From positions 1 through 36,940 of the forward strand of contig JAUWLY010000001.1 in assembly GCA_030613445.1 (NCBI GenBank): a DNA stretch of 36,940 bases, read 5' to 3'. This document shows, piece by piece, positions 2,734 to 11,166 of this stretch. Source of the DNA: Candidatus Stahliibacteriota bacterium (GTDB lineage Bacteria; Hydrothermota; Tepidihabitantia; SM23-42). Below the pieces are notes generated by a model, which was not told where the DNA came from, made no database searches, and saw only the letters and a list, made by a program, of their open reading frames with translations. A program made the translations under genes and the position numbers. Every line of letters begins with the position of its first letter. Positions within the stretch are counted from its first letter, which is position 1.

Positions 2734-2820
2734 TGTTCCTCATTCTTAGATTTCTCCCTTACTCCTATACTTTCATACTCCGTCACTCAAAAAAGGTTTG
2801 ACCCCATTTGTTCATTGATC

Positions 2821-3726
2821 CTAATGAACCAATATTATTTTCTCGATATATGAGTTTCCTGCAGTTTGGAGTTTCACGAAATATACGCCGGAAACCACTC
2901 TCTGTCCAGCTTGGTCTGTACCATCCCAGACAACCTGATCAAATGAATAATTGATTAAATCCTTAAATTGCCTTACTAACCTCCCGCTCGCATTGTAGAT
3001 CTTTAGCTCCATACCCTCTGCCCAACTTGTCCCGTAGGATAAGCATGTTATCCTATCGGGATGCCCTGTGCTAAATCTGATATTCGTACTCTTGCTGCAC
3101 GGATTCGGATATACGGACAGAAAAGGTGTACCTGTTGCTTTCTCTTCGTGCTCTTTTAAACCCACAATTACATAATCAATAATCAGCGCAGCGTCGAGCA
3201 TTTCATCAGCCCAAAAAGCATAAAAGAAATGCATACACGGTTCAGCAGTACCCCGTGAACCTTTGTACCCAAGTCCGAACCAGGAACTGCTTTGCCAGGC
3301 GTTGATAAAATCATCTCTTGCCTGGGTACCAGTCAAATCAAAATATGTATAGTCTTCTGCACTGGCATTTACTGCCTGGTTTGTCAAATATATAGGTTCT
3401 GTACCACCGCATTCATCCCAGCTTGGGGTATTCGAAACAACGCGATTTATGTCAATCTGAAGTCCAGCACCACCGGTATTGTTACGCAGCCTCAAAACCA
3501 GTGAACTTATTTCAGTCCCCGCACCTGGATAACCATTTATGGTAAATTGATTATAGCCACGATATTCCAAGGTACTGAACCCAGCCGCGGCCATGCCCTG
3601 CGAATGATTTGGACCAATCGGACCAAATAGCCAGTAATAATAACCCCAGTCCCAATCACTATAGAAAATCCGGGTCGGCGCATAGAGTAATAGCAAAGGT
3701 ATAAATATTACGATATATTTCTTCAT
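2821..3726 (-). CDS. T9SS-sorted secreted protein, function unknown
   Basis: 301 aa. N-terminal signal peptide MKKYIVIFIPLLLLYA. C-terminus YPNPCSKSTNIRF...LKIYNASGRLV...SGVYFVKL...KIILVH matches the T9SS type-A CTD pattern. Confidence 0.75.
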   Translation of the reverse strand: MKKYIVIFIPLLLLYAPTRIFYSDWDWGYYYWLFGPIGPNHSQGMAAAGFSTLEYRGYNQFTINGYPGAGTEISSLVLRLRNNTGGAGLQIDINRVVSNTPSWDECGGTEPIYLTNQAVNASAEDYTYFDLTGTQARDDFINAWQSSSWFGLGYKGSRGTAEPCMHFFYAFWADEMLDAALIIDYVIVGLKEHEEKATGTPFLSVYPNPCSKSTNIRFSTGHPDRITCLSYGTSWAEGMELKIYNASGRLVRQFKDLINYSFDQVVWDGTDQAGQRVVSGVYFVKLQTAGNSYIEKIILVH

Positions 3727-3745
3727 ATTACCCGCCTTTAATAAA

Positions 3746-3773
3746 ATTATAACGAAATCGTGCGAGCCGTCAA
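3746..3773 (-). promoter_or_regulatory. sigma70-like promoter for 2821..3726
   Basis: Minus strand: GTCTTGACG (-35 at 3773-3768), 16 nt, TATAAT (3751-3746), about 20 nt before ATG 3726. Confidence 0.65.
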
Positions 3774-3852
3774 GACTTAAGTGTAATTCTGTTCAGTGTT
3801 TCGATAATTCGGGAAGTGTTTTCTCACAACTGAATTCAATTATCTTTTGATA

Positions 3853-3979
3853 AGTGCGAAAATTTATATCTATATTTTTGTCATTTGATTAGGACTATCT
3901 GACACAATCTTAGTTGCTTCCCTTTCTCCGTGTCTCCGTTTCTCCAAGTCTGCGTTTCTCAAAAAAGGTTTGACCCCAT
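3853..3979 (+). repeat. intergenic repeat block, copy 2 (homologous to 628..710)
   Basis: Same module order as 628..710, with an extra internal TCTCCGT-rich insert (CCTTTCTCCGTGTCTCCGTTTCTCC). Ends in GGTTTGACCCCAT. Confidence 0.7.
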
Positions 3980-4003
3980 ATCTTCCGCTTCATAATCGCC
4001 AAC

Positions 4004-4192
4004 TCATTGCGCAACATAGTGTAAAGACCTTCCTTTCCCAGAACTTCTAAGAACCCCTAATTTTACAAGTTTCTTGATTTCTTTCAGAGCACCTTCATCC
4101 GAAAGTTTAAACAGCTTCCTGGTAGGTAGGTTTTTCATATACCACACTTCATCTTGTCTTTTATCGAACCACTTCGTAAACAATCCATGCAA
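4004..4192 (-). CDS. small winged-helix-like protein, possibly a gene remnant
   Basis: 62-aa ORF with TTG start and no clear RBS. The C-terminal LKEIKKLVKLGVLRSSGKGRSLHYV looks like a wHTH recognition region. Its first ~23 codons plus upstream DNA are duplicated at 5575..5711. Confidence 0.3.
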   Translation of the reverse strand: MHGLFTKWFDKRQDEVWYMKNLPTRKLFKLSDEGALKEIKKLVKLGVLRSSGKGRSLHYVAQ

Positions 4193-4260
4193 TTATTACA
4201 AAGATAATAATAATTATACCGTAGCTCATTATTTCTCTGCGCCTCATTTTCCTTTTCACT
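4124..4260 (+). repeat. 137-bp direct repeat, copy A (pairs with 5575..5711)
   Basis: Hand alignment gives about 8 mismatches over 137 bp with 5575..5711. Covers the 5' end and upstream region of ORF 4004..4192. Confidence 0.9.
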
Positions 4261-4352
4261 TGTACATTATCCAAAATTTTGTCATAAAATCAACCCCCGT
4301 CCCCTAGTTTCATTTCTGCGCCTCGTTCGTCAGTGCAAAACTTATCTTGTAG

Positions 4353-4374
4353 AATGTCAAGACCTGCCACCTTT
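4353..4374 (+). repeat. 22-bp perfect inverted repeat, left copy (pairs with 8279..8300)
   Basis: AATGTCAAGACCTGCCACCTTT on the plus strand equals the reverse complement of 8279..8300, which holds the ATG and first 7 codons of the HNH gene. Confidence 0.9.
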
Positions 4375-4389
4375 ATTCATGTACCATTT

Positions 4390-4923
4390 CTATAAATATG
4401 ATCGTGCGATAAATTTTGCCATATGTGAAAGTACACGACAGCAAAATGGTTTCCTCATGCATATTTGCATCTTTCTATTAATATGAATAGATGAGACATT
4501 TTGAAAATAATTGCGCAACATATTAGATATATTTAAATCTTTTAAGTTACCATTATTGTGAATAATAATATTTCTGATTTGAGCATAGATGCAGATCTCG
4601 TCCCACGATTGATGAGATCTGACTGGATTTAAATTAGCTACTAGAGCAATATATTTATTGAACCTATCAAGGAATGATTTTCCACGTATATCCTGCAATT
4701 TCAATTCTAAATTTTTTTCTTGCGCGATGCGTTCACAAATATATCTTAAATGAGATTCAAATAAAGCATAATATCGCAAGAAAAAGGAATAGCGAAACGT
4801 CCTAATAGCTTCATTAATCCAAAATTCTCGTCTATATAATTCCATTTTCTGCTTTTTGATAAGACGAAGATGATGCTCTATTGTCGTTTCAAAAAGGTCT
4901 ACGTATATTCGTGCATAATACAC
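4390..4923 (-). CDS. HEPN-domain protein (RiboL-PSP / MAE_28990-like type), putative RNase
   Basis: 177 aa, all-helical-looking. Contains the Rx4H HEPN motif in YAQIRNIIIHNNG and an upstream LFESHLRYI helix typical of these families. GTG start at 4923, start uncertain. Confidence 0.6.
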   Translation of the reverse strand: MYYARIYVDLFETTIEHHLRLIKKQKMELYRREFWINEAIRTFRYSFFLRYYALFESHLRYICERIAQEKNLELKLQDIRGKSFLDRFNKYIALVANLNPVRSHQSWDEICIYAQIRNIIIHNNGNLKDLNISNMLRNYFQNVSSIHINRKMQICMRKPFCCRVLSHMAKFIARSYL

Positions 4924-4971: not shown

Positions 4972-5394
4972 TTACTCTTTCAACATTCTACTATACGGCT
5001 TTTCAATAACTTCACCGTTTTTCTTTACTAAAAATACTCTTAATTTCAATAGTCGCCAAGCGTATTTCATTTTTTTTACTTTATTCTTATAAACACGCAG
5101 CCATTCATGTGGAATGCCAATTGCATATATTCGTCCCTTCTTAGGATGATTACCCTGAATATCCATCCTTGATATTATCTGTCCTAAAACATTATAAAAA
5201 GCGCTGTGTAGTTCTTGATGCTTGTGTTTACCGCTACCGCCTTTCACTTCAATAAATAACAACCTTCGCCACTTTGGATGCCAGGCATGAATATCCACCC
5301 CGTGTTCGCCAATACGCTTTGGTGCTTTCTTGATTTTCCAGCCTTTATCAATAAGGTATTTTCGAATATGTCGTTCAACTATTTTTTCTTTCAT
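4972..5394 (-). CDS. PD-(D/E)xK (restriction-endonuclease-fold) small nuclease-like protein
   Basis: 140 aa. ERHIRKYLIDKGWKI...GVDIHAW...LLFIEVKGG matches the alpha-beta-beta-beta core with D...ExK (D in GVDI, E-V-K in IEVKG). RBS AAGGAGAAAG before the ATG. Confidence 0.6.
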   Translation of the reverse strand: MKEKIVERHIRKYLIDKGWKIKKAPKRIGEHGVDIHAWHPKWRRLLFIEVKGGSGKHKHQELHSAFYNVLGQIISRMDIQGNHPKKGRIYAIGIPHEWLRVYKNKVKKMKYAWRLLKLRVFLVKKNGEVIEKPYSRMLKE

Positions 5395-5537
5395 CTTTCT
5401 CCTTACTCCCTAGTGTCTAGTGCCTACTGTCCAGTATTCCTCCTCTTACTACCCAAACAGCCATTCCTCACCTCCCTTGAGATTTCTCTTCGAATAAATA
5501 CTGCAATCACTCACATAATCAAAATGTCCAATGTCCA

Positions 5538-5574
5538 GCTGAAAGTGCTGAAGAATTGAAGTGATCTAACCCCC
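5538..5574 (+). repeat. 37-bp direct repeat, copy 1 (pairs with 7621..7657)
   Basis: GCTGAAAGTGCTGAAGAATTGAAGTGATCTAACCCCC is identical at 7621..7657. Weaker similarity extends upstream (AATGTCCAATGTCCAGC vs AAAGTCCAAAGTCCAGC). Directly abuts repeat 5575..5711. Confidence 0.9.
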
Positions 5575-5711
5575 AGGTAGGTTTTTCATATATCACACTT
5601 CTTCTTGTCTTTTATCGAACCACTTCGTAAACAATCCATGCAATTATTACAAAGATAATAATAATTATACCCCAACTCATTATTTCTCTGCGCTTCATTT
5701 TTCTTCTCACT
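5575..5711 (+). repeat. 137-bp direct repeat, copy B, with truncated copy of the 4004..4192 gene start
   Basis: Near-identical to 4124..4260. In this copy the reading frame (TTG CAT GGA TTG TTT ACG AAG TGG TTC GAT AAA AGA CAA GAA GAA GTG TGA) stops after 16 codons. Confidence 0.9.
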
Positions 5712-5740
5712 ACGCATTACTCCTTACTCACTACTGTCCT

Positions 5741-6049
5741 TTAAGGTTTGACCCCACATCTTGTACCATCTTCAAGTCTTCTTAAATGTGAGAACTCAGT
5801 AATTTTAACTACTTCAGACATTATCTTCAATAAATCATTTTGGTGCGTTTCTTGATGTCTGGCGAGAAAATCGATTAGGGCTGAAACAATATTTCTCTTA
5901 TACTCATTCCAATTGAGTTTTGATAAGATACTCGGATCGCTAATTGTATGCATTATGAAACTGCGAAGTTCTGCTTTATACCAATAAATACTGGTTAACG
6001 CATTTTTTAAGGCATTAATAGCAGCTGATGATATAGCTTTCTTTCTCAT
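5741..6049 (-). CDS. hypothetical protein, operonic partner of the TIR protein (possibly truncated)
   Basis: 102 aa. RBS GAGGAAAAG, and the start is 9 nt after the TIR gene stop. The last codons and stop (TGT GGG GTC AAA CCT TAA) lie inside the recurrent GGGGTCAAACC motif. No family recognised. Confidence 0.5.
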   Translation of the reverse strand: MRKKAISSAAINALKNALTSIYWYKAELRSFIMHTISDPSILSKLNWNEYKRNIVSALIDFLARHQETHQNDLLKIMSEVVKITEFSHLRRLEDGTRCGVKP

Positions 6050-6058
6050 TCTTTTCCT

Positions 6059-6784
6059 CTAATAACTCTTTATAATCTCATTATGTAATATATCTGCAAT
6101 TTCTTTCAAAGATTTTTCATTAGTTATTAACGCAATTTTATCAGCTAATGGTGGACTATATCGGAGTACATCTTTCTTGTTTATACCATGCCAAATAGGT
6201 AAAATCACTTTCTGCCCTTCTATTTCTCGGGCAACCAAACCATTCAATTCATATTCTGGCCAATCTTTATCAAAAAAAGCCGTTGAGAGTACAACTATAC
6301 CGAATCTTGAATTTACTAATCCTTTATCTATTGATTGTCTTAAACTATCTCCAACTCTTAATTCAAATTCATCATACCATATTTTTAATCCCAGTTCGGT
6401 TAATTGTCTAGCCAATGGTCTCACAAATGAGTTCTTATCTTCACTAGCATGACTTATAAATGCATCATAGCCAATATTATTTGGTTCATTTTTCGTTTTA
6501 TTAAATTCACTATCGTACAAACGTAACATTAACCCAGAATGAAAACTAAATGCTTCATCAGCGGAATTGAATTTTGATTTTGTATATAGGTTCATCGGTG
6601 TGGTGCCTCCTATAACCCACCATTCCTTATCATTTTTGTCTGTTGTGACAACTGATAATACTATATCTTCTTTTCCAAACAGGTAAAAAGTTTCATAGTA
6701 CTTAATATCAATTACTTTCGTTTTGCCTTCCAACTCAACATATTCCTTTGCTCGTTTAATGATTTCCTTTACATCTAATCCCAT
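6059..6784 (-). CDS. TIR-domain protein with unrecognised ~105-aa N-terminal domain
   Basis: The C-terminal 135 aa (YDAFISHASEDKNSFVRPLARQL...IWYDEFELRVGDSL...IVVLSTAFFDKDWPEYELNGL...ILPIWHG) matches bacterial TIR_2 hallmarks, including the glutamate in W.EYEL. RBS AAGGAGGG. Confidence 0.85.
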   Translation of the reverse strand: MGLDVKEIIKRAKEYVELEGKTKVIDIKYYETFYLFGKEDIVLSVVTTDKNDKEWWVIGGTTPMNLYTKSKFNSADEAFSFHSGLMLRLYDSEFNKTKNEPNNIGYDAFISHASEDKNSFVRPLARQLTELGLKIWYDEFELRVGDSLRQSIDKGLVNSRFGIVVLSTAFFDKDWPEYELNGLVAREIEGQKVILPIWHGINKKDVLRYSPPLADKIALITNEKSLKEIADILHNEIIKSY

Positions 6785-6848
6785 TAATCCCTCCTTTGAT
6801 CACAGTCCATTGTCGAGATTTGACCCCACATCTCCTGCCTCATTTTTA

Positions 6849-7481
6849 TCAATAAGCCCATTGTACTGTCCATATCGTATTGCCGAGTGTATCTGGCCAG
6901 CATTCTACCAATACTACTCTTGGTACAGTAATTGATATACTACCAGAGTCAATGAAGATGTTTGTATCACGATAAACTTCCCAACAATAATCGTCAACCG
7001 TTACAGTATCGGATACGACAATAGTATGAAATTCATCTGGCGGAGCATCTACATGGAGAATATAATCTCCACTTGCGCCGGTCAAATGTAAATCAATTGG
7101 TGAGAGACAAGTACTATCATAACCACTGCTATGTAGACATATTTCACATTCTTCAAATGGTGGATAGTATAAATAAATCAGATCGGTGGTAATGGCAGAT
7201 TCGATGAGCTCATCTTCAACATAGAGATCGATAATTAATGTATCACCATAATACGAGGAAAAGATACCCTGAACGATCTCGTATTCATCCTCTAATTCAT
7301 GATTATGCGAAGCTGGTACGGTATCCATGCCTTCAATATAATTGTTACCAGGTATATCGCCAATATAGTAATAAAATTCAGCTCCATCAGTACCGCTAAC
7401 TCTAAACTCAACGCTTTGTGGGTAATTACCACAACCAGCGACAAACAGAATTGCGCAGCCCAACCAGATATAGCCTTTCAT
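6849..7481 (-). CDS. lipoprotein, function unknown
   Basis: 210 aa. The signal peptide with lipobox (MKGYIWLGCAILFVAG-C) predicts a lipoprotein. RBS GGGAGG 5 nt upstream. Confidence 0.7.
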   Translation of the reverse strand: MKGYIWLGCAILFVAGCGNYPQSVEFRVSGTDGAEFYYYIGDIPGNNYIEGMDTVPASHNHELEDEYEIVQGIFSSYYGDTLIIDLYVEDELIESAITTDLIYLYYPPFEECEICLHSSGYDSTCLSPIDLHLTGASGDYILHVDAPPDEFHTIVVSDTVTVDDYCWEVYRDTNIFIDSGSISITVPRVVLVECWPDTLGNTIWTVQWAY

Positions 7482-7518
7482 TCTTACCTCCCTTGTGTGA
7501 GTTCATTTAACTGCTATA

Positions 7519-7549
7519 GTATTATTAATAATCTCTTGACAGTCAAGAG
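7519..7549 (-). promoter_or_regulatory. promoter for 6849..7481 inside a 17-bp palindrome
   Basis: CTCTTGAC-A-GTCAAGAG (7533-7549) presents a -35-like hexamer on both strands. The minus-strand TTGACT (7546-7541), 16 nt, TAATAC (7524-7519) fits the lipoprotein gene. Confidence 0.5.
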
Positions 7550-7620
7550 CCGATGTATAGATTCATTTATCTCATCCGTAAAAGTCCAAAGTCCAGCGGA
7601 ACGTATCGAAGTATTGAGAT

Positions 7621-7657
7621 GCTGAAAGTGCTGAAGAATTGAAGTGATCTAACCCCC
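7621..7657 (+). repeat. 37-bp direct repeat, copy 2 (pairs with 5538..5574)
   Basis: Identical 37-mer located 38 nt downstream (gene sense) of the stop of 7696..7992. Confidence 0.9.
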
Positions 7658-7695: not shown

Positions 7696-7992
7696 CTACC
7701 GCTTTTTCCTTTTAGTCTTTGATAAATTAGTCACGGTAACATGCATCCTCTTCTTACGCACCTGCTGCATTGCTTTATTCATATCCTTTTGCGGAACCCT
7801 TAGGATTTTATTTTTATTCCTTTGAGTTTTCAAACGAGACAACGCTTGATCTATCTTCTTCGGAGTACCGCCTCTTTCAACTTCGATTGCATGATGACCG
7901 CGAATTGCATCAAGACGACGACCACGTGAAATAGGAACTTCTTTTCGAGCGGCTTTCCCCTTGCCACGTTTGTGTGATCTACTTTCTGGCAT
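7696..7992 (-). CDS. hyper-basic small protein (nucleic-acid-binding?), partner of the HNH gene
   Basis: 98 aa, very rich in K/R at both ends (HKRGKGKAARK...; ...KTKRKKR). The central RLDAIRGHHAIEVERGG is faintly nuclease-core-like, but no family is recognised. Lies 46 nt downstream of the HNH gene. Confidence 0.5.
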   Translation of the reverse strand: MPESRSHKRGKGKAARKEVPISRGRRLDAIRGHHAIEVERGGTPKKIDQALSRLKTQRNKNKILRVPQKDMNKAMQQVRKKRMHVTVTNLSKTKRKKR

Positions 7993-8038: not shown

Positions 8039-8299
8039 TCATAATGTTCTGCTATGACAATCCCAGCAAAGAATTTCACAATTTGAAAGACTATCGGAGC
8101 CTCCACTTTGAATACTCACCCGATGGTGAGCTTCCCATGAACCCCAACCGCTATCACGACCACGATTCCCCCACGATAGGGTTTTATTACACCGCCCTAC
8201 ATGACCATGGGTTGTTCGCGCGCACTCAGATTTGCCGCCTGATCTTTGCCATGCAGCCTTCACAGTTTCTTCAGGAGAAAAGGTGGCAGGTCTTGACAT
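8039..8299 (-). CDS. HNH endonuclease (small, stand-alone)
   Basis: 86 aa with C..(H)GH..C...WEAHH...(14)...NCEILCWDCH, the classic HNH beta-beta-alpha-metal motif with Cys pairs. Confidence 0.8.
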   Translation of the reverse strand: MSRPATFSPEETVKAAWQRSGGKSECARTTHGHVGRCNKTLSWGNRGRDSGWGSWEAHHRVSIQSGGSDSLSNCEILCWDCHSRTL

Positions 8300-8300
8300 T
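8279..8300 (-). repeat. 22-bp perfect inverted repeat, right copy (pairs with 4353..4374)
   Basis: Plus strand AAAGGTGGCAGGTCTTGACATT is the reverse complement of 4353..4374. Overlaps the HNH start codon. Confidence 0.9.
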
Positions 8301-8361
8301 AGACATTTTCCTCGCGGATTATTATATTGATACCAGTGATTCTTGTTCCCTCAATAGTGAA

Positions 8362-10792: not shown

Positions 10793-11138
10793 GATATTTT
10801 ATATAAAATCCATGAAAAATAGAGCCTTTTTCTGGTGAGATCCGTTTTCTAATACACTCTTTTCGTGTTATTCTGCTCTCACTCCCATTCACCGTCATAT
10901 TACTCACTCCCCCTTCTTACTCGCGAATTTCCGCCTATGCTATTATCCACAAATTACCGCATTAGTCAATAATCCCCACTAACCAAAACAAAAAAGGCAT
11001 AGCCCCTTAACCACCAAACACACGTAGATACAGCTAAGGCAACTACACCTTTGTGGATTTTTCCAAACCTGCTACTTAGTTAAAAAATCCGTCATACCCG
11101 TTCTGTCTCCAGAACGGTTCTCATACCTTCTCAATCAA

Positions 11139-11166
11139 ATTATATGTATTATTTATTAGATGTCAA
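11139..11166 (-). promoter_or_regulatory. orphan promoter plus leader module (no downstream ORF)
   Basis: Minus strand: CTCTTGACA, 16 nt, TATAAT, then TTGATT-GAGAAGGTATGAG. The same GAGAAGGTATGA leader start follows the two ORF6N promoters. Followed by an 8-bp hairpin CCGTTCTG-GAGA-CAGAACGG (11117-11098) and T6 (11087-11082). Confidence 0.55.

Follow-up and report, generated by a model that had tools for sequence, protein, structure and literature searches.

Shared boundary sequences between unrelated small genes in a Candidatus Stahliibacteriota contig: a putative peptide gene and a possible gene-less transposon end

The DNA considered here (the window) is the 36,940-nucleotide contig JAUWLY010000001.1 of a Candidatus Stahliibacteriota bacterium (assembly GCA_030613445.1), an uncultured organism represented by a fragmented metagenome-assembled genome (MAG). 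The window is the entire contig C262, the longest of 371 contigs in a 2.8-Mb genome bin that is 76% complete. From position 1 to about 11,000 every gene lies on the minus strand, and the region is described in gene sense, i.e., with descending coordinates. In it two repeats, of 37 and 137 nucleotides, are interspersed with small genes in the order: HNH nuclease and basic protein; 37-mer; putative lipoprotein, TIR-domain protein and 102-aa open reading frame (ORF); 137-nt repeat joined to a second 37-mer; 140-aa protein and putative HEPN protein; second 137-nt repeat. A first-pass annotation had recognized this order and had interpreted it as a cassette-like array of unrelated gene blocks, inserted serially at a common site although the window holds no recombinase. 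In the following the repeats are compared with the own genome of the bacterium (G000), with seven congeners (G001–G007) and with a sister family (f2); numbers with a C denote contigs.

Repeats at the block boundaries

The boundary features, in gene sense, are:

7578–7657, minus strand: putative solo TIRYT-type repeat, copy 2, with modules H-a-c-d-e (H, GGGGGTTAGATCAC; a, TTCAATTCTTC; c, AGCACTTTCAGC; d, ATCTCAATACTTCGATACGTTCCGC; e, TGGACTTTGGACT)
5575–5711, minus strand: 137-nt repeat, copy B, with ribosome-binding site, 28-codon ORF at 5612–5698 (MKRREIMSWGIIIIIFVIIAWIVYEVVR) and 37-nt tail at 5575–5611, without the usual promoter
5521–5574, minus strand: putative solo TIRYT-type repeat, copy 1, with modules H-a-c-e, without d
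4124–4260, minus strand: 137-nt repeat, copy A, with ribosome-binding site, 28-codon ORF at 4161–4247 (MRRREIMSYGIIIIIFVIIAWIVYEVVR) and 37-nt tail at 4124–4160
3993–4123, minus strand: 3′ remnant of a Fic/DOC gene (about 128 nt, C-terminal winged helix), 90% identical to the 3′ end of an intact Fic gene

The 37-mer is present at 5538–5574 and 7621–7657 (plus-strand numbering) with 0 mismatches, and 0 of 100 shuffles gave such a match. The whole assembly holds just these two copies, even with 3 mismatches allowed. In gene sense the 37-mer reads GGGGGTTAGATCAC-TTCAATTCTTC-AGCACTTTCAGC, which corresponds to the modules H-a-c, and both copies have a private head variant, GGGGGTTAGATC, found nowhere else. 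Copy 2 begins 38 nt past the stop codon of the 98-aa basic-protein gene and copy 1 begins 37 nt past that of the peptide gene in the 137-nt copy B, which it abuts at 5574/5575 without a spacer, as the annotation had stated. The weaker similarity reported next to the 37-mers is real, too; it lies at lower plus-strand coordinates, i.e., downstream in gene sense, where both copies carry TGGAC(A/T)TTGGAC(A/T)TTT, copy 2 with 25 additional nucleotides in front. Unrelated gene blocks are indeed separated by shared boundary sequences that are not due to chance.

The 37-mer forms the head part of a modular element, H-a-[b]-c-[d]-e, in which H is usually GGGGTCAGGTCAC, a is TTCAATTCTTC, the optional b is CCCTCAGTACTTCGGGATCTCCGAC, c is AGCACTTTCAGC, the optional d is ATCTCGGTAAACTCGATATCTTCGAC and e is TGGACATTGGACA. 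In the window elements short pyrimidine-rich modules (a and c, plus d in copy 2) separate H from the tandem hexamer e. The module sets H-a-b-c-d-e, H-a-b-c-e, H-a-c-d-e, H-a-c-e and H-e were found at unrelated loci of G000, G003, G004 and G006 and on contig SDBS01021108, which comes from a different organism and was the sole contig obtained from the scan of a single metagenome. Related copies within the own genome are located on C86, C89, C327 and C369. Copy 1 matches the copy on SDBS01021108 (L048), which there lies downstream of a TonB-receptor-like gene, at 96% identity over 53 nt, and copy 2 matches a copy on G003:C53, the flanks of which are unrelated, at 90% over 86 nt.

The head motif TGGGGTCARAYC, i.e., TGGGGTCA(A/G)A(C/T)C, has 61 copies in the own genome versus 0 for the reversed control. 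In the seven congeners there are 18–116 copies per genome, and in the sister family f2 the counts are mostly background (0–6; one genome 24). A search with the slightly looser pattern TGGGGTCARAY gave 66 copies, of which 55 lie between genes; the first gene upstream is co-oriented in 35 cases and opposite in 16. All six G000 members of the 37-mer family lie 5–70 nt past the end of a co-oriented gene. The copies on G003:C53, G004:C139 and the metagenome contig, which are clear cases, likewise follow directly after a co-oriented gene, and three other family copies lie within repeat pile-ups where no neighboring gene can be assigned. Four of the five e-type hexamer pairs in G000 have an H head 36–87 nt upstream. 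A conserved target sequence ahead of the heads was not found. The tie between the 37-mer and variable gene blocks that the annotation had proposed was largely not borne out, since family members occur, as expected of a dispersed repeat, at unrelated loci of the assembly and of relatives.

A structured RNA, a terminator, a repetitive extragenic palindromic (REP) element and an attC site were considered for the 37-mer family and rejected, because neither strand folds above shuffled sequence: the junctions, folded as DNA on both strands, gave z scores of −0.47 to +0.92, and the family folded as RNA and as DNA no better than shuffles and contained no palindrome.

Some further arrangements of the heads should be mentioned. 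An intergenic pile-up in G006:C66 (L025, 9780–10310), flanked by two large secreted-protein genes, holds three 37-mer-type elements (GGGTCACTTCAATTCTTCAGCACTTACAGC) interleaved with TGGGGTCAGGTCTTGAAATAT heads at a spacing of 141–177 nt. A head TGGGGTCAAATCTTTGCATTTTGCAT with 100 nt is 98% identical between two species (L022, G004:C105, 13903–14025; L025, G006:C66, 1–123), and both contigs terminate at the same point just past this repeat, which in G006 directly adjoins another head. What appeared to be a 3.5-kb indel between heads of these two contigs was, therefore, discarded as a clean gain or loss of a cassette, the same 98%-identical repeat standing at both contig ends; the repeat is probably the end of a multi-copy element inserted independently at different sites. 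On C327 (4897–5112, minus strand) a 71-codon ORF with a strong Shine-Dalgarno (SD) sequence reads through an H-a-b-c-d-e element; it is probably spurious.

The two 137-nt repeats (4124–4260 and 5575–5711) are 94% identical with 8 differing positions, and their encoded peptides are two residues apart. Copy A has the module's own promoter-like site at 4266–4293. A third copy of the peptide gene is present in the own genome at C156:1975–2061, and a DNA search found the module 1–4 times per genome in six congeners (G001–G007 without G003) at 76–96% nucleotide identity. For comparison, the TonB-receptor orthologue is only 51–73% identical at the protein level among the congeners. In all 10 full-length copies extracted, taken from the own and five further genomes of the genus, the 87-nt frame is intact and preceded by an SD sequence. 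A promoter-like site, TTGA(C/T)T-N16/17-GATAAT, is found in 8 of the 10; it is absent in window copy B, and in one G001 copy the upstream sequence is too short. The replacements in the peptide are conservative (I/V/M/L/F, K/R, W/Y). The 137-mer is thus likely to be a coding module, namely a 28-codon hydrophobic-peptide gene with a 37-nt tail, the arguments for coding being the conservation of the frame and the conservative replacements.

The 28-aa peptide has a basic N-terminus and one hydrophobic stretch of membrane-span length; no family in PADLOC or NCBIfam matched it. Folded as DNA the two 137-mers yielded z scores of −0.74 and −0.81. Both share a private 13-nt extension past the usual end of the peptide module. 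Hok, Ldr, Ibs and TisB are type I toxins or small hydrophobic peptides. The genes of such peptides resemble the present one in being multi-copy per genome, in having their own promoter and SD sequence, in their conservation at the nucleotide level and in the single stretch of membrane-span length. The resemblance ends in that the 28-aa peptide has no family match and that an Rfam scan of the whole window matched no family. Window positions 4136–4379, which comprise a terminal inverted repeat of a second class (described below), spacer, promoter, peptide gene and tail, are 92% identical over 244 nt to G007:C56 (L027, 6165–6405); the peptide gene and the solo repeat upstream of it are, therefore, either transferred or conserved as a pair.

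Behind copy A the annotation had placed a winged helix-turn-helix (wHTH) gene. The gene order it gave is correct but this label is not: in the ORF at 4004–4192 the last approximately 40 codons represent the 3′ terminus of a Fic gene, fused to sequence of the peptide module, and the ORF is a junction artefact. The intact counterpart, a 347-aa Fic gene with the motif HPFVDGNGR (C156:2231–3274; Pfam Fic, 2.4e-22), is situated downstream of the peptide gene on C156, and the DNA downstream of the peptide gene on G002:C167 is near-identical to that of C156. Because of these two adjacencies the linkage between peptide gene A and the Fic remnant must be considered an old one.

Transposase genes sharing the ends

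A scan of the window found no Y1 transposase and no tyrosine recombinase (DDE and serine recombinases were not scanned). To this extent the statement that the window lacks a recombinase stands, but a matching enzyme family is encoded elsewhere in the genome, which has 13 Y1_Tnp loci. The head motif is the outer end of perfect 17–26-bp terminal inverted repeats around four Y1 elements of 1.06 kb, with one gene each for a protein of 329–333 aa:

C4:4851–5912
C88:519–1581
C106:19367–20428
C37:5497–6564

These proteins carry the HUH (NHFHL) and YxxxNP motifs; the one that was scanned matched Pfam Y1_Tnp with 9.8e-15 and no other Pfam family. The NCBIfam equivalog for RAYT proteins (REP_Tyr_transpos) gave 66 bits, which is under its 80-bit cut-off, and the C-terminus gave only a weak DnaA match (TIGR00362, E 0.022, residues 235–324). 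Gene-less inverted doublets of 92–376 bp with the same ends are also present in the own genome. A second class of terminal inverted repeat, AAGGTGGCAGGTCTTGACAT, brackets two 308-aa Y1 genes (C345, C109).

H joined directly to e yields a 24–26-bp terminal inverted repeat, TGGGGTCAAATCT(C/G)GACATTGGACA, which flanks TIRYT genes in G015, G004 and G022, the proteins of which are 54–62% identical to that of C88. In relatives the terminal inverted repeat around TIRYT genes reads TGGGGTCA(A/G)(A/G)TCT-(C/T)GACATTGGACA. Doublets of H plus e occur in many relatives, 57–112 nt apart from start to start, mostly 74–86. In contrast to the contiguous H plus e of G015, G004 and G022, the window elements hold 23 or 48 nt between the two.

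Each TIRYT lineage has its own short tandem immediately after the common head, and both halves of the tandem change in step (C4, C88, C106, C37; L049–L051). Examples of such tandems are TGACTA-T-TGACAA, CAACA-T-TCAACA, TCACA-A-TTCACA, CTACA-T-TCTACA, (C/T)GACA-T-TGGACA and GAATAG-T-GAATAG; window copy 2 has TGGACT-T-TGGACT and relatives have TGGACA-T-TGGACA. The tandem has the look of an address particular to each lineage, which a putative C-terminal helix-turn-helix (HTH) domain may read.

TIRtrons, with TIRYT as their enzymes, were described in 2013 as having terminal inverted repeats of the consensus GGGGWSAS and as occurring in single, dimeric and grouped copies (Di Nocera, De Gregorio and Rocco, 2013; PMC3733652), and most such enzymes were later assigned to TnpA-REP subclass 2.1, with a DnaA_C-like tail (Quentin et al., 2018; PMC6006769). 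From sequence, the Y1/HUH elements and ends of the present genome have the TIRtron/TIRYT organization. They share with TIRtrons the length of about 1 kb, a RAYT-like Y1/HUH protein, possibly with an HTH tail at its C-terminus, as sole gene product, the non-palindromic 17–26-bp inverted repeats starting with GGGG(T)(C)A, the scattering of the identical repeat between genes in single, paired and grouped gene-less copies, and the presence of several enzyme lineages per genome, each with its own repeat. They differ in that the window elements add 23 or 48 nt of modules between head and tandem hexamer, that most solo copies lie directly after a gene and co-oriented with it, and that the host is an uncultured lineage. 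The fit to GGGGWSAS is exact for GGGGTCAG variants and extends to 7 of 8 positions each for the commoner GGGGTCAA and for the window head, GGGGTTAG, which thus deviates at one position.

There is also a likeness to REP, BIME and REPIN sequences and their RAYT proteins (Bertels and Rainey, 2011; PMC3116915), which are likewise short repeats outside genes, are found in inverted orientation on both sides of a Y1 gene, form inverted doublets resembling a mobile unit and, in the case of BIMEs, are mosaics of optional modules. Here, however, the repeats are non-palindromic, begin with GGGG and have neither a GTAG nor a CGTC tag, and the enzyme falls under the NCBIfam cut-off for RAYT as given above. 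REP/RAYT elements are reportedly also treated by Nunvar (2010) and Ton-Hoang (2012).

Neighboring genes and further solo ends

Between positions 697 and 8305 there are ten solo ends: six TGGGGTCA heads, the two 37-mer elements and two ends of the second class. Nine of the ten are co-oriented with the genes. With 6 heads in 7 kb this is the densest head cluster of the assembly; the runner-up has 4. The ends not yet listed and the protein-coding genes of the blocks are:

8272–8305, plus strand: second solo class-2 terminal inverted repeat, inverted relative to that at 4348–4381 and pointing outward
8039–8299, minus strand: HNH nuclease gene, 86 aa (Pfam HNH, 1.7e-8)
7696–7992, minus strand: basic protein gene, 98 aa, no family match
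6849–7481, minus strand: putative lipoprotein (label of the first-pass annotation), 210 aa, no family match
6803–6828, minus strand: solo terminal inverted repeat TGGGGTCAAATCTCGACAATGGACTG, between the lipoprotein and TIR-domain genes, 2 positions off the repeat flanking TIRYT genes of relatives
6059–6784, minus strand: TIR-domain protein, 241 aa, of the ThsB / PDC-S66 type (Pfam TIR_2, 2.9e-19; PADLOC PDC-S66, 2e-69, and ThsB, 3.5e-44)
5741–6049, minus strand: 102-aa ORF, no family match
5743–5762, minus strand: solo head TGGGGTCAAACC, overlapping the final codons of the 102-aa ORF, with the shared leader AAAGGACAGTAGTGAG behind it
4972–5394, minus strand: 140-aa protein, annotated at first as a nuclease, with a weak UPF0102 (YraN-like) match (0.0021; 18.8 bits, below the 23.6-bit cut-off)
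4390–4923, minus strand: putative HEPN protein, 177 aa, with Rx4H motif (IRNIIIH) and weak PADLOC HEPN matches of about 0.0025
4348–4381, minus strand: solo class-2 terminal inverted repeat AAAGGTGGCAGGTCTTGACAT, of the class found around the 308-aa Y1 genes of C345 and C109
3965–3984, minus strand: solo head TGGGGTCAAACC with TTTTTTGAG leader, after the Fic remnant
2793–2812, minus strand: solo head TGGGGTCAAACC with TTTTTTGAG leader, after the gene of a 301-aa protein with a type IX secretion system (T9SS) tail, within a block 97% identical to G004:C139
697–770, minus strand: two further solo heads, TGGGGTCAGACC and TGGGGTCAAATCTCGAATAGTGAAT, the latter of the GAATAG subfamily

Pfam searches of window proteins were made with a maximal E value of 0.01. 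Neither Pfam nor PADLOC nor NCBIfam returned anything for the 102-aa, 210-aa and 98-aa proteins. The genes between repeats also include HicAB and a SecB-like ORF (weak match). The class-2 repeat at 8272–8305 provides the ATG and the first nine codons (MSRPATFSP) of the HNH ORF; a class-2 repeat also yields MSRPATF in a spurious ORF on C156. The 102-aa ORF, in turn, has its end within a repeat head (CGVKP*). Sigma-70 consensus matches stand ahead of several genes. It should be noted, however, that a promoter and terminator consensus scan of the window gave 26 promoter-like sites versus 19 expected and was uninformative.

Upstream of the TonB-receptor orthologue no synteny was found in five congeners, the gene content being wholly different, and the congener species are too distant for an empty-site comparison. 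The 98-aa basic protein is 94% identical to a protein of G001:C46 (gene 90% at the nucleotide level), where the neighbor genes differ, and homologues of the 140-aa ORF in G004 and G006 (75–86% nucleotide identity) stand beside other partner genes. Where relatives share either of these genes, homology ends at the borders of the ORF rather than at the repeats. The comparison of synteny that the annotation had proposed does not, as far as these congeners allow it, place the block borders at the repeats.

A close correspondence with another species is that of window positions 2773–3858, i.e., promoter, 301-aa gene and trailing head, with G004:C139 (L037, 484–1569) at 97% nucleotide identity. On G004:C139 the same peptide gene is found upstream of the 301-aa gene, but the filler between them is a member of the 37-mer family, where the window has tail, Fic stump and head. 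The TonB receptors of G004 and of the own genome are 73% identical at the protein level, against the 97% nucleotide identity of the 301-aa block, which suggests a recent interspecies exchange or the presence in G004, the contamination of which is listed at 9%, of DNA from a strain closely related to G000. A 170-nt region upstream of the TonB-receptor gene (10987–11156) is repeated at C109:4585–4754 and in G001 (L023, 10804–10983) at 87–91% identity; it includes a strong TTGACA-N17-TATAAT site on the minus strand.

Origin of the layout

If M denotes the peptide gene and tail followed by H-a-c-e, the region reads X|M3′-cargo1-M5′|M3′-cargo2-M5′|X. With moderate confidence we take the boundaries to be two kinds of multi-copy gap-filling DNA, a gene-less transposon end and a small peptide gene, and the layout to be the product of recombination without a dedicated site or integrase. 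The sequence comparisons suggest that the 37-mer represents the outer portion of a gene-less (solo) transposon end of the TIRYT type; the solo ends would have been spread by TIRYT enzymes. The layout could have been generated by two single crossovers between dispersed copies, which would leave direct repeats. A first crossover would have taken place in the 137-nt homology of peptide genes and a second in the 37 perfectly identical nucleotides H-a-c of two otherwise different members, one with and one without module d. Both could have been Campbell-type or unequal crossovers, small defense and toxin-type genes meanwhile accumulating at this place.

The annotation's proposal of serial insertion at a common site is correct with respect to the order, which is 37-mer, cargo 1, 137-mer, 37-mer, cargo 2, 137-mer, as predicted; the boundaries are, however, not a dedicated common site, the 137-mer being a multi-copy peptide gene across the genus and the 37-mer belonging to a dispersed family of putative transposon ends. 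Two homologous crossovers and serial insertion fit the layout equally well. We lean toward the homologous route because the peptide A-Fic linkage recurs independently on C156 and, via near-identical downstream DNA, on G002:C167, because the borders of the 37-mer elements are those of the family found elsewhere, because unit 1 has further internal heads, and because a conserved target sequence ahead of the heads is lacking. Several points weigh against it. Serial site-specific insertion at the junction of tail and H predicts the arrangement of the M parts exactly. Both repeat pairs are local sister copies by virtue of the private head variant and the private 13-nt extension, so that either mode of origin is possible. 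With 37 nt the identical stretch is close to the minimum for homologous recombination. A TIRYT gene with exactly the 37-mer-type inverted repeat was not found in the 76%-complete G000 assembly, and the three codon positions share the substitutions of the peptide ORF about equally (6, 5, 7). Finally, no TIRYT has been tested biochemically (PMC3733652; PMC6006769).

Serial insertion could have been catalyzed by an HUH transposase: a cassette consisting of H-a-c-e, cargo, peptide gene and tail would have been excised as a single-stranded circle and inserted at the junction of tail and H by a TIRYT acting in trans. We regard this as improbable, and equally so the extension that co-oriented solo ends in general would be working recombination sites, comparable to an integron with another enzyme. 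Two units do abut head to tail without spacer (5575/5574), both starting with H and ending in ...CCTACCT; nine of the ten solo ends in 8.3 kb are co-oriented with the genes; the peptide gene of G004:C139 also precedes a 37-mer-family element; the genome has 13 Y1 transposase loci; and near-identical elements are shared across species (98% between G004 and G006). However, the ends of unit 1 are not unique, since it has two internal heads, the heads have no conserved sequence preceding them as target, and the homology of the 140-aa ORF and of the basic-protein gene stops at the ORF borders and not at heads. The independent recurrence of the peptide A-Fic linkage would be unexpected had the peptide gene arrived on a circle, and neither a circular nor an empty-site form was seen. 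If the cassette explanation were true, this would be an integron-like collecting of defense genes built on a single-strand tyrosine transposase. A single local tandem duplication of an ancestral unit reaching from 37-mer to 137-mer, with the cargo later replaced in one copy and without a role for mobile elements, would account for the interleaved order of the repeats, their direct abutment and the private variants within each pair. We doubt it, since the two cargos are without a trace of similarity, the copies differ by the entire module d, and the borders of the 37-mer elements match those of the family in other genomes; the borders of the 137-mers, by contrast, lie 13 nt past the usual end of the module.

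It could also be argued that the block order is not real, the contig having been mis-joined via the two repeats. The genome is a fragmented MAG, and independent Logan contigs of SRR12623517 break at the repeats (L033, 7620–5670; L034, 5567–4191) and do not span the junction of copy B with the 37-mer. Nevertheless a mis-join is very unlikely: within the blocks these contigs are 100% identical to the window, the 137-mers are distinguishable by 8 positions, and a read of typical (here assumed) length would roughly match or exceed each repeat. Of all alternatives a classical integron, i.e., an array of attC cassettes as in a cluster of attC sites lacking integrases (CALIN), is the least probable, and we reject it on the basis of the folding results and because no IntI was found (in a genome that is 76% complete). 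The region resembles such arrays in that its genes are small and co-oriented and have a shared sequence behind each of them, and in its accessory, defense-type and toxin-antitoxin content. Here, however, the junction strands fold no better than shuffled ones (z −0.8 to +0.9), which excludes an attC fold, and inverted core sites are lacking; the PF00589 matches of the genome are two ORFs of about 295 aa (guessed from their size to be XerC/D) and two fragments, all of them on other contigs; one of the shared sequences is a gene and the other a putative transposon end; and several genes have promoter-like sites (sigma-70 consensus matches) of their own.

The interpretation that the boundaries are gap-filling DNA brought into order by recombination would explain an ordered "cassette" layout by known parts, and it guards against inferring an integron-like system from the geometry of repeats alone. 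It adds an uncultured lineage to those with multiplied TIRYT/TIRtron ends (18–116 heads per genome in the genus) and, within it, a modular form of the end with inserts that is not mentioned in PMC3733652 or PMC6006769. The ends pile up in a stretch rich in defense and toxin-type genes, and the paired variants of enzyme and end, each with its own tandem hexamer, may serve as ready substrates for the first bench test of a TIRYT.

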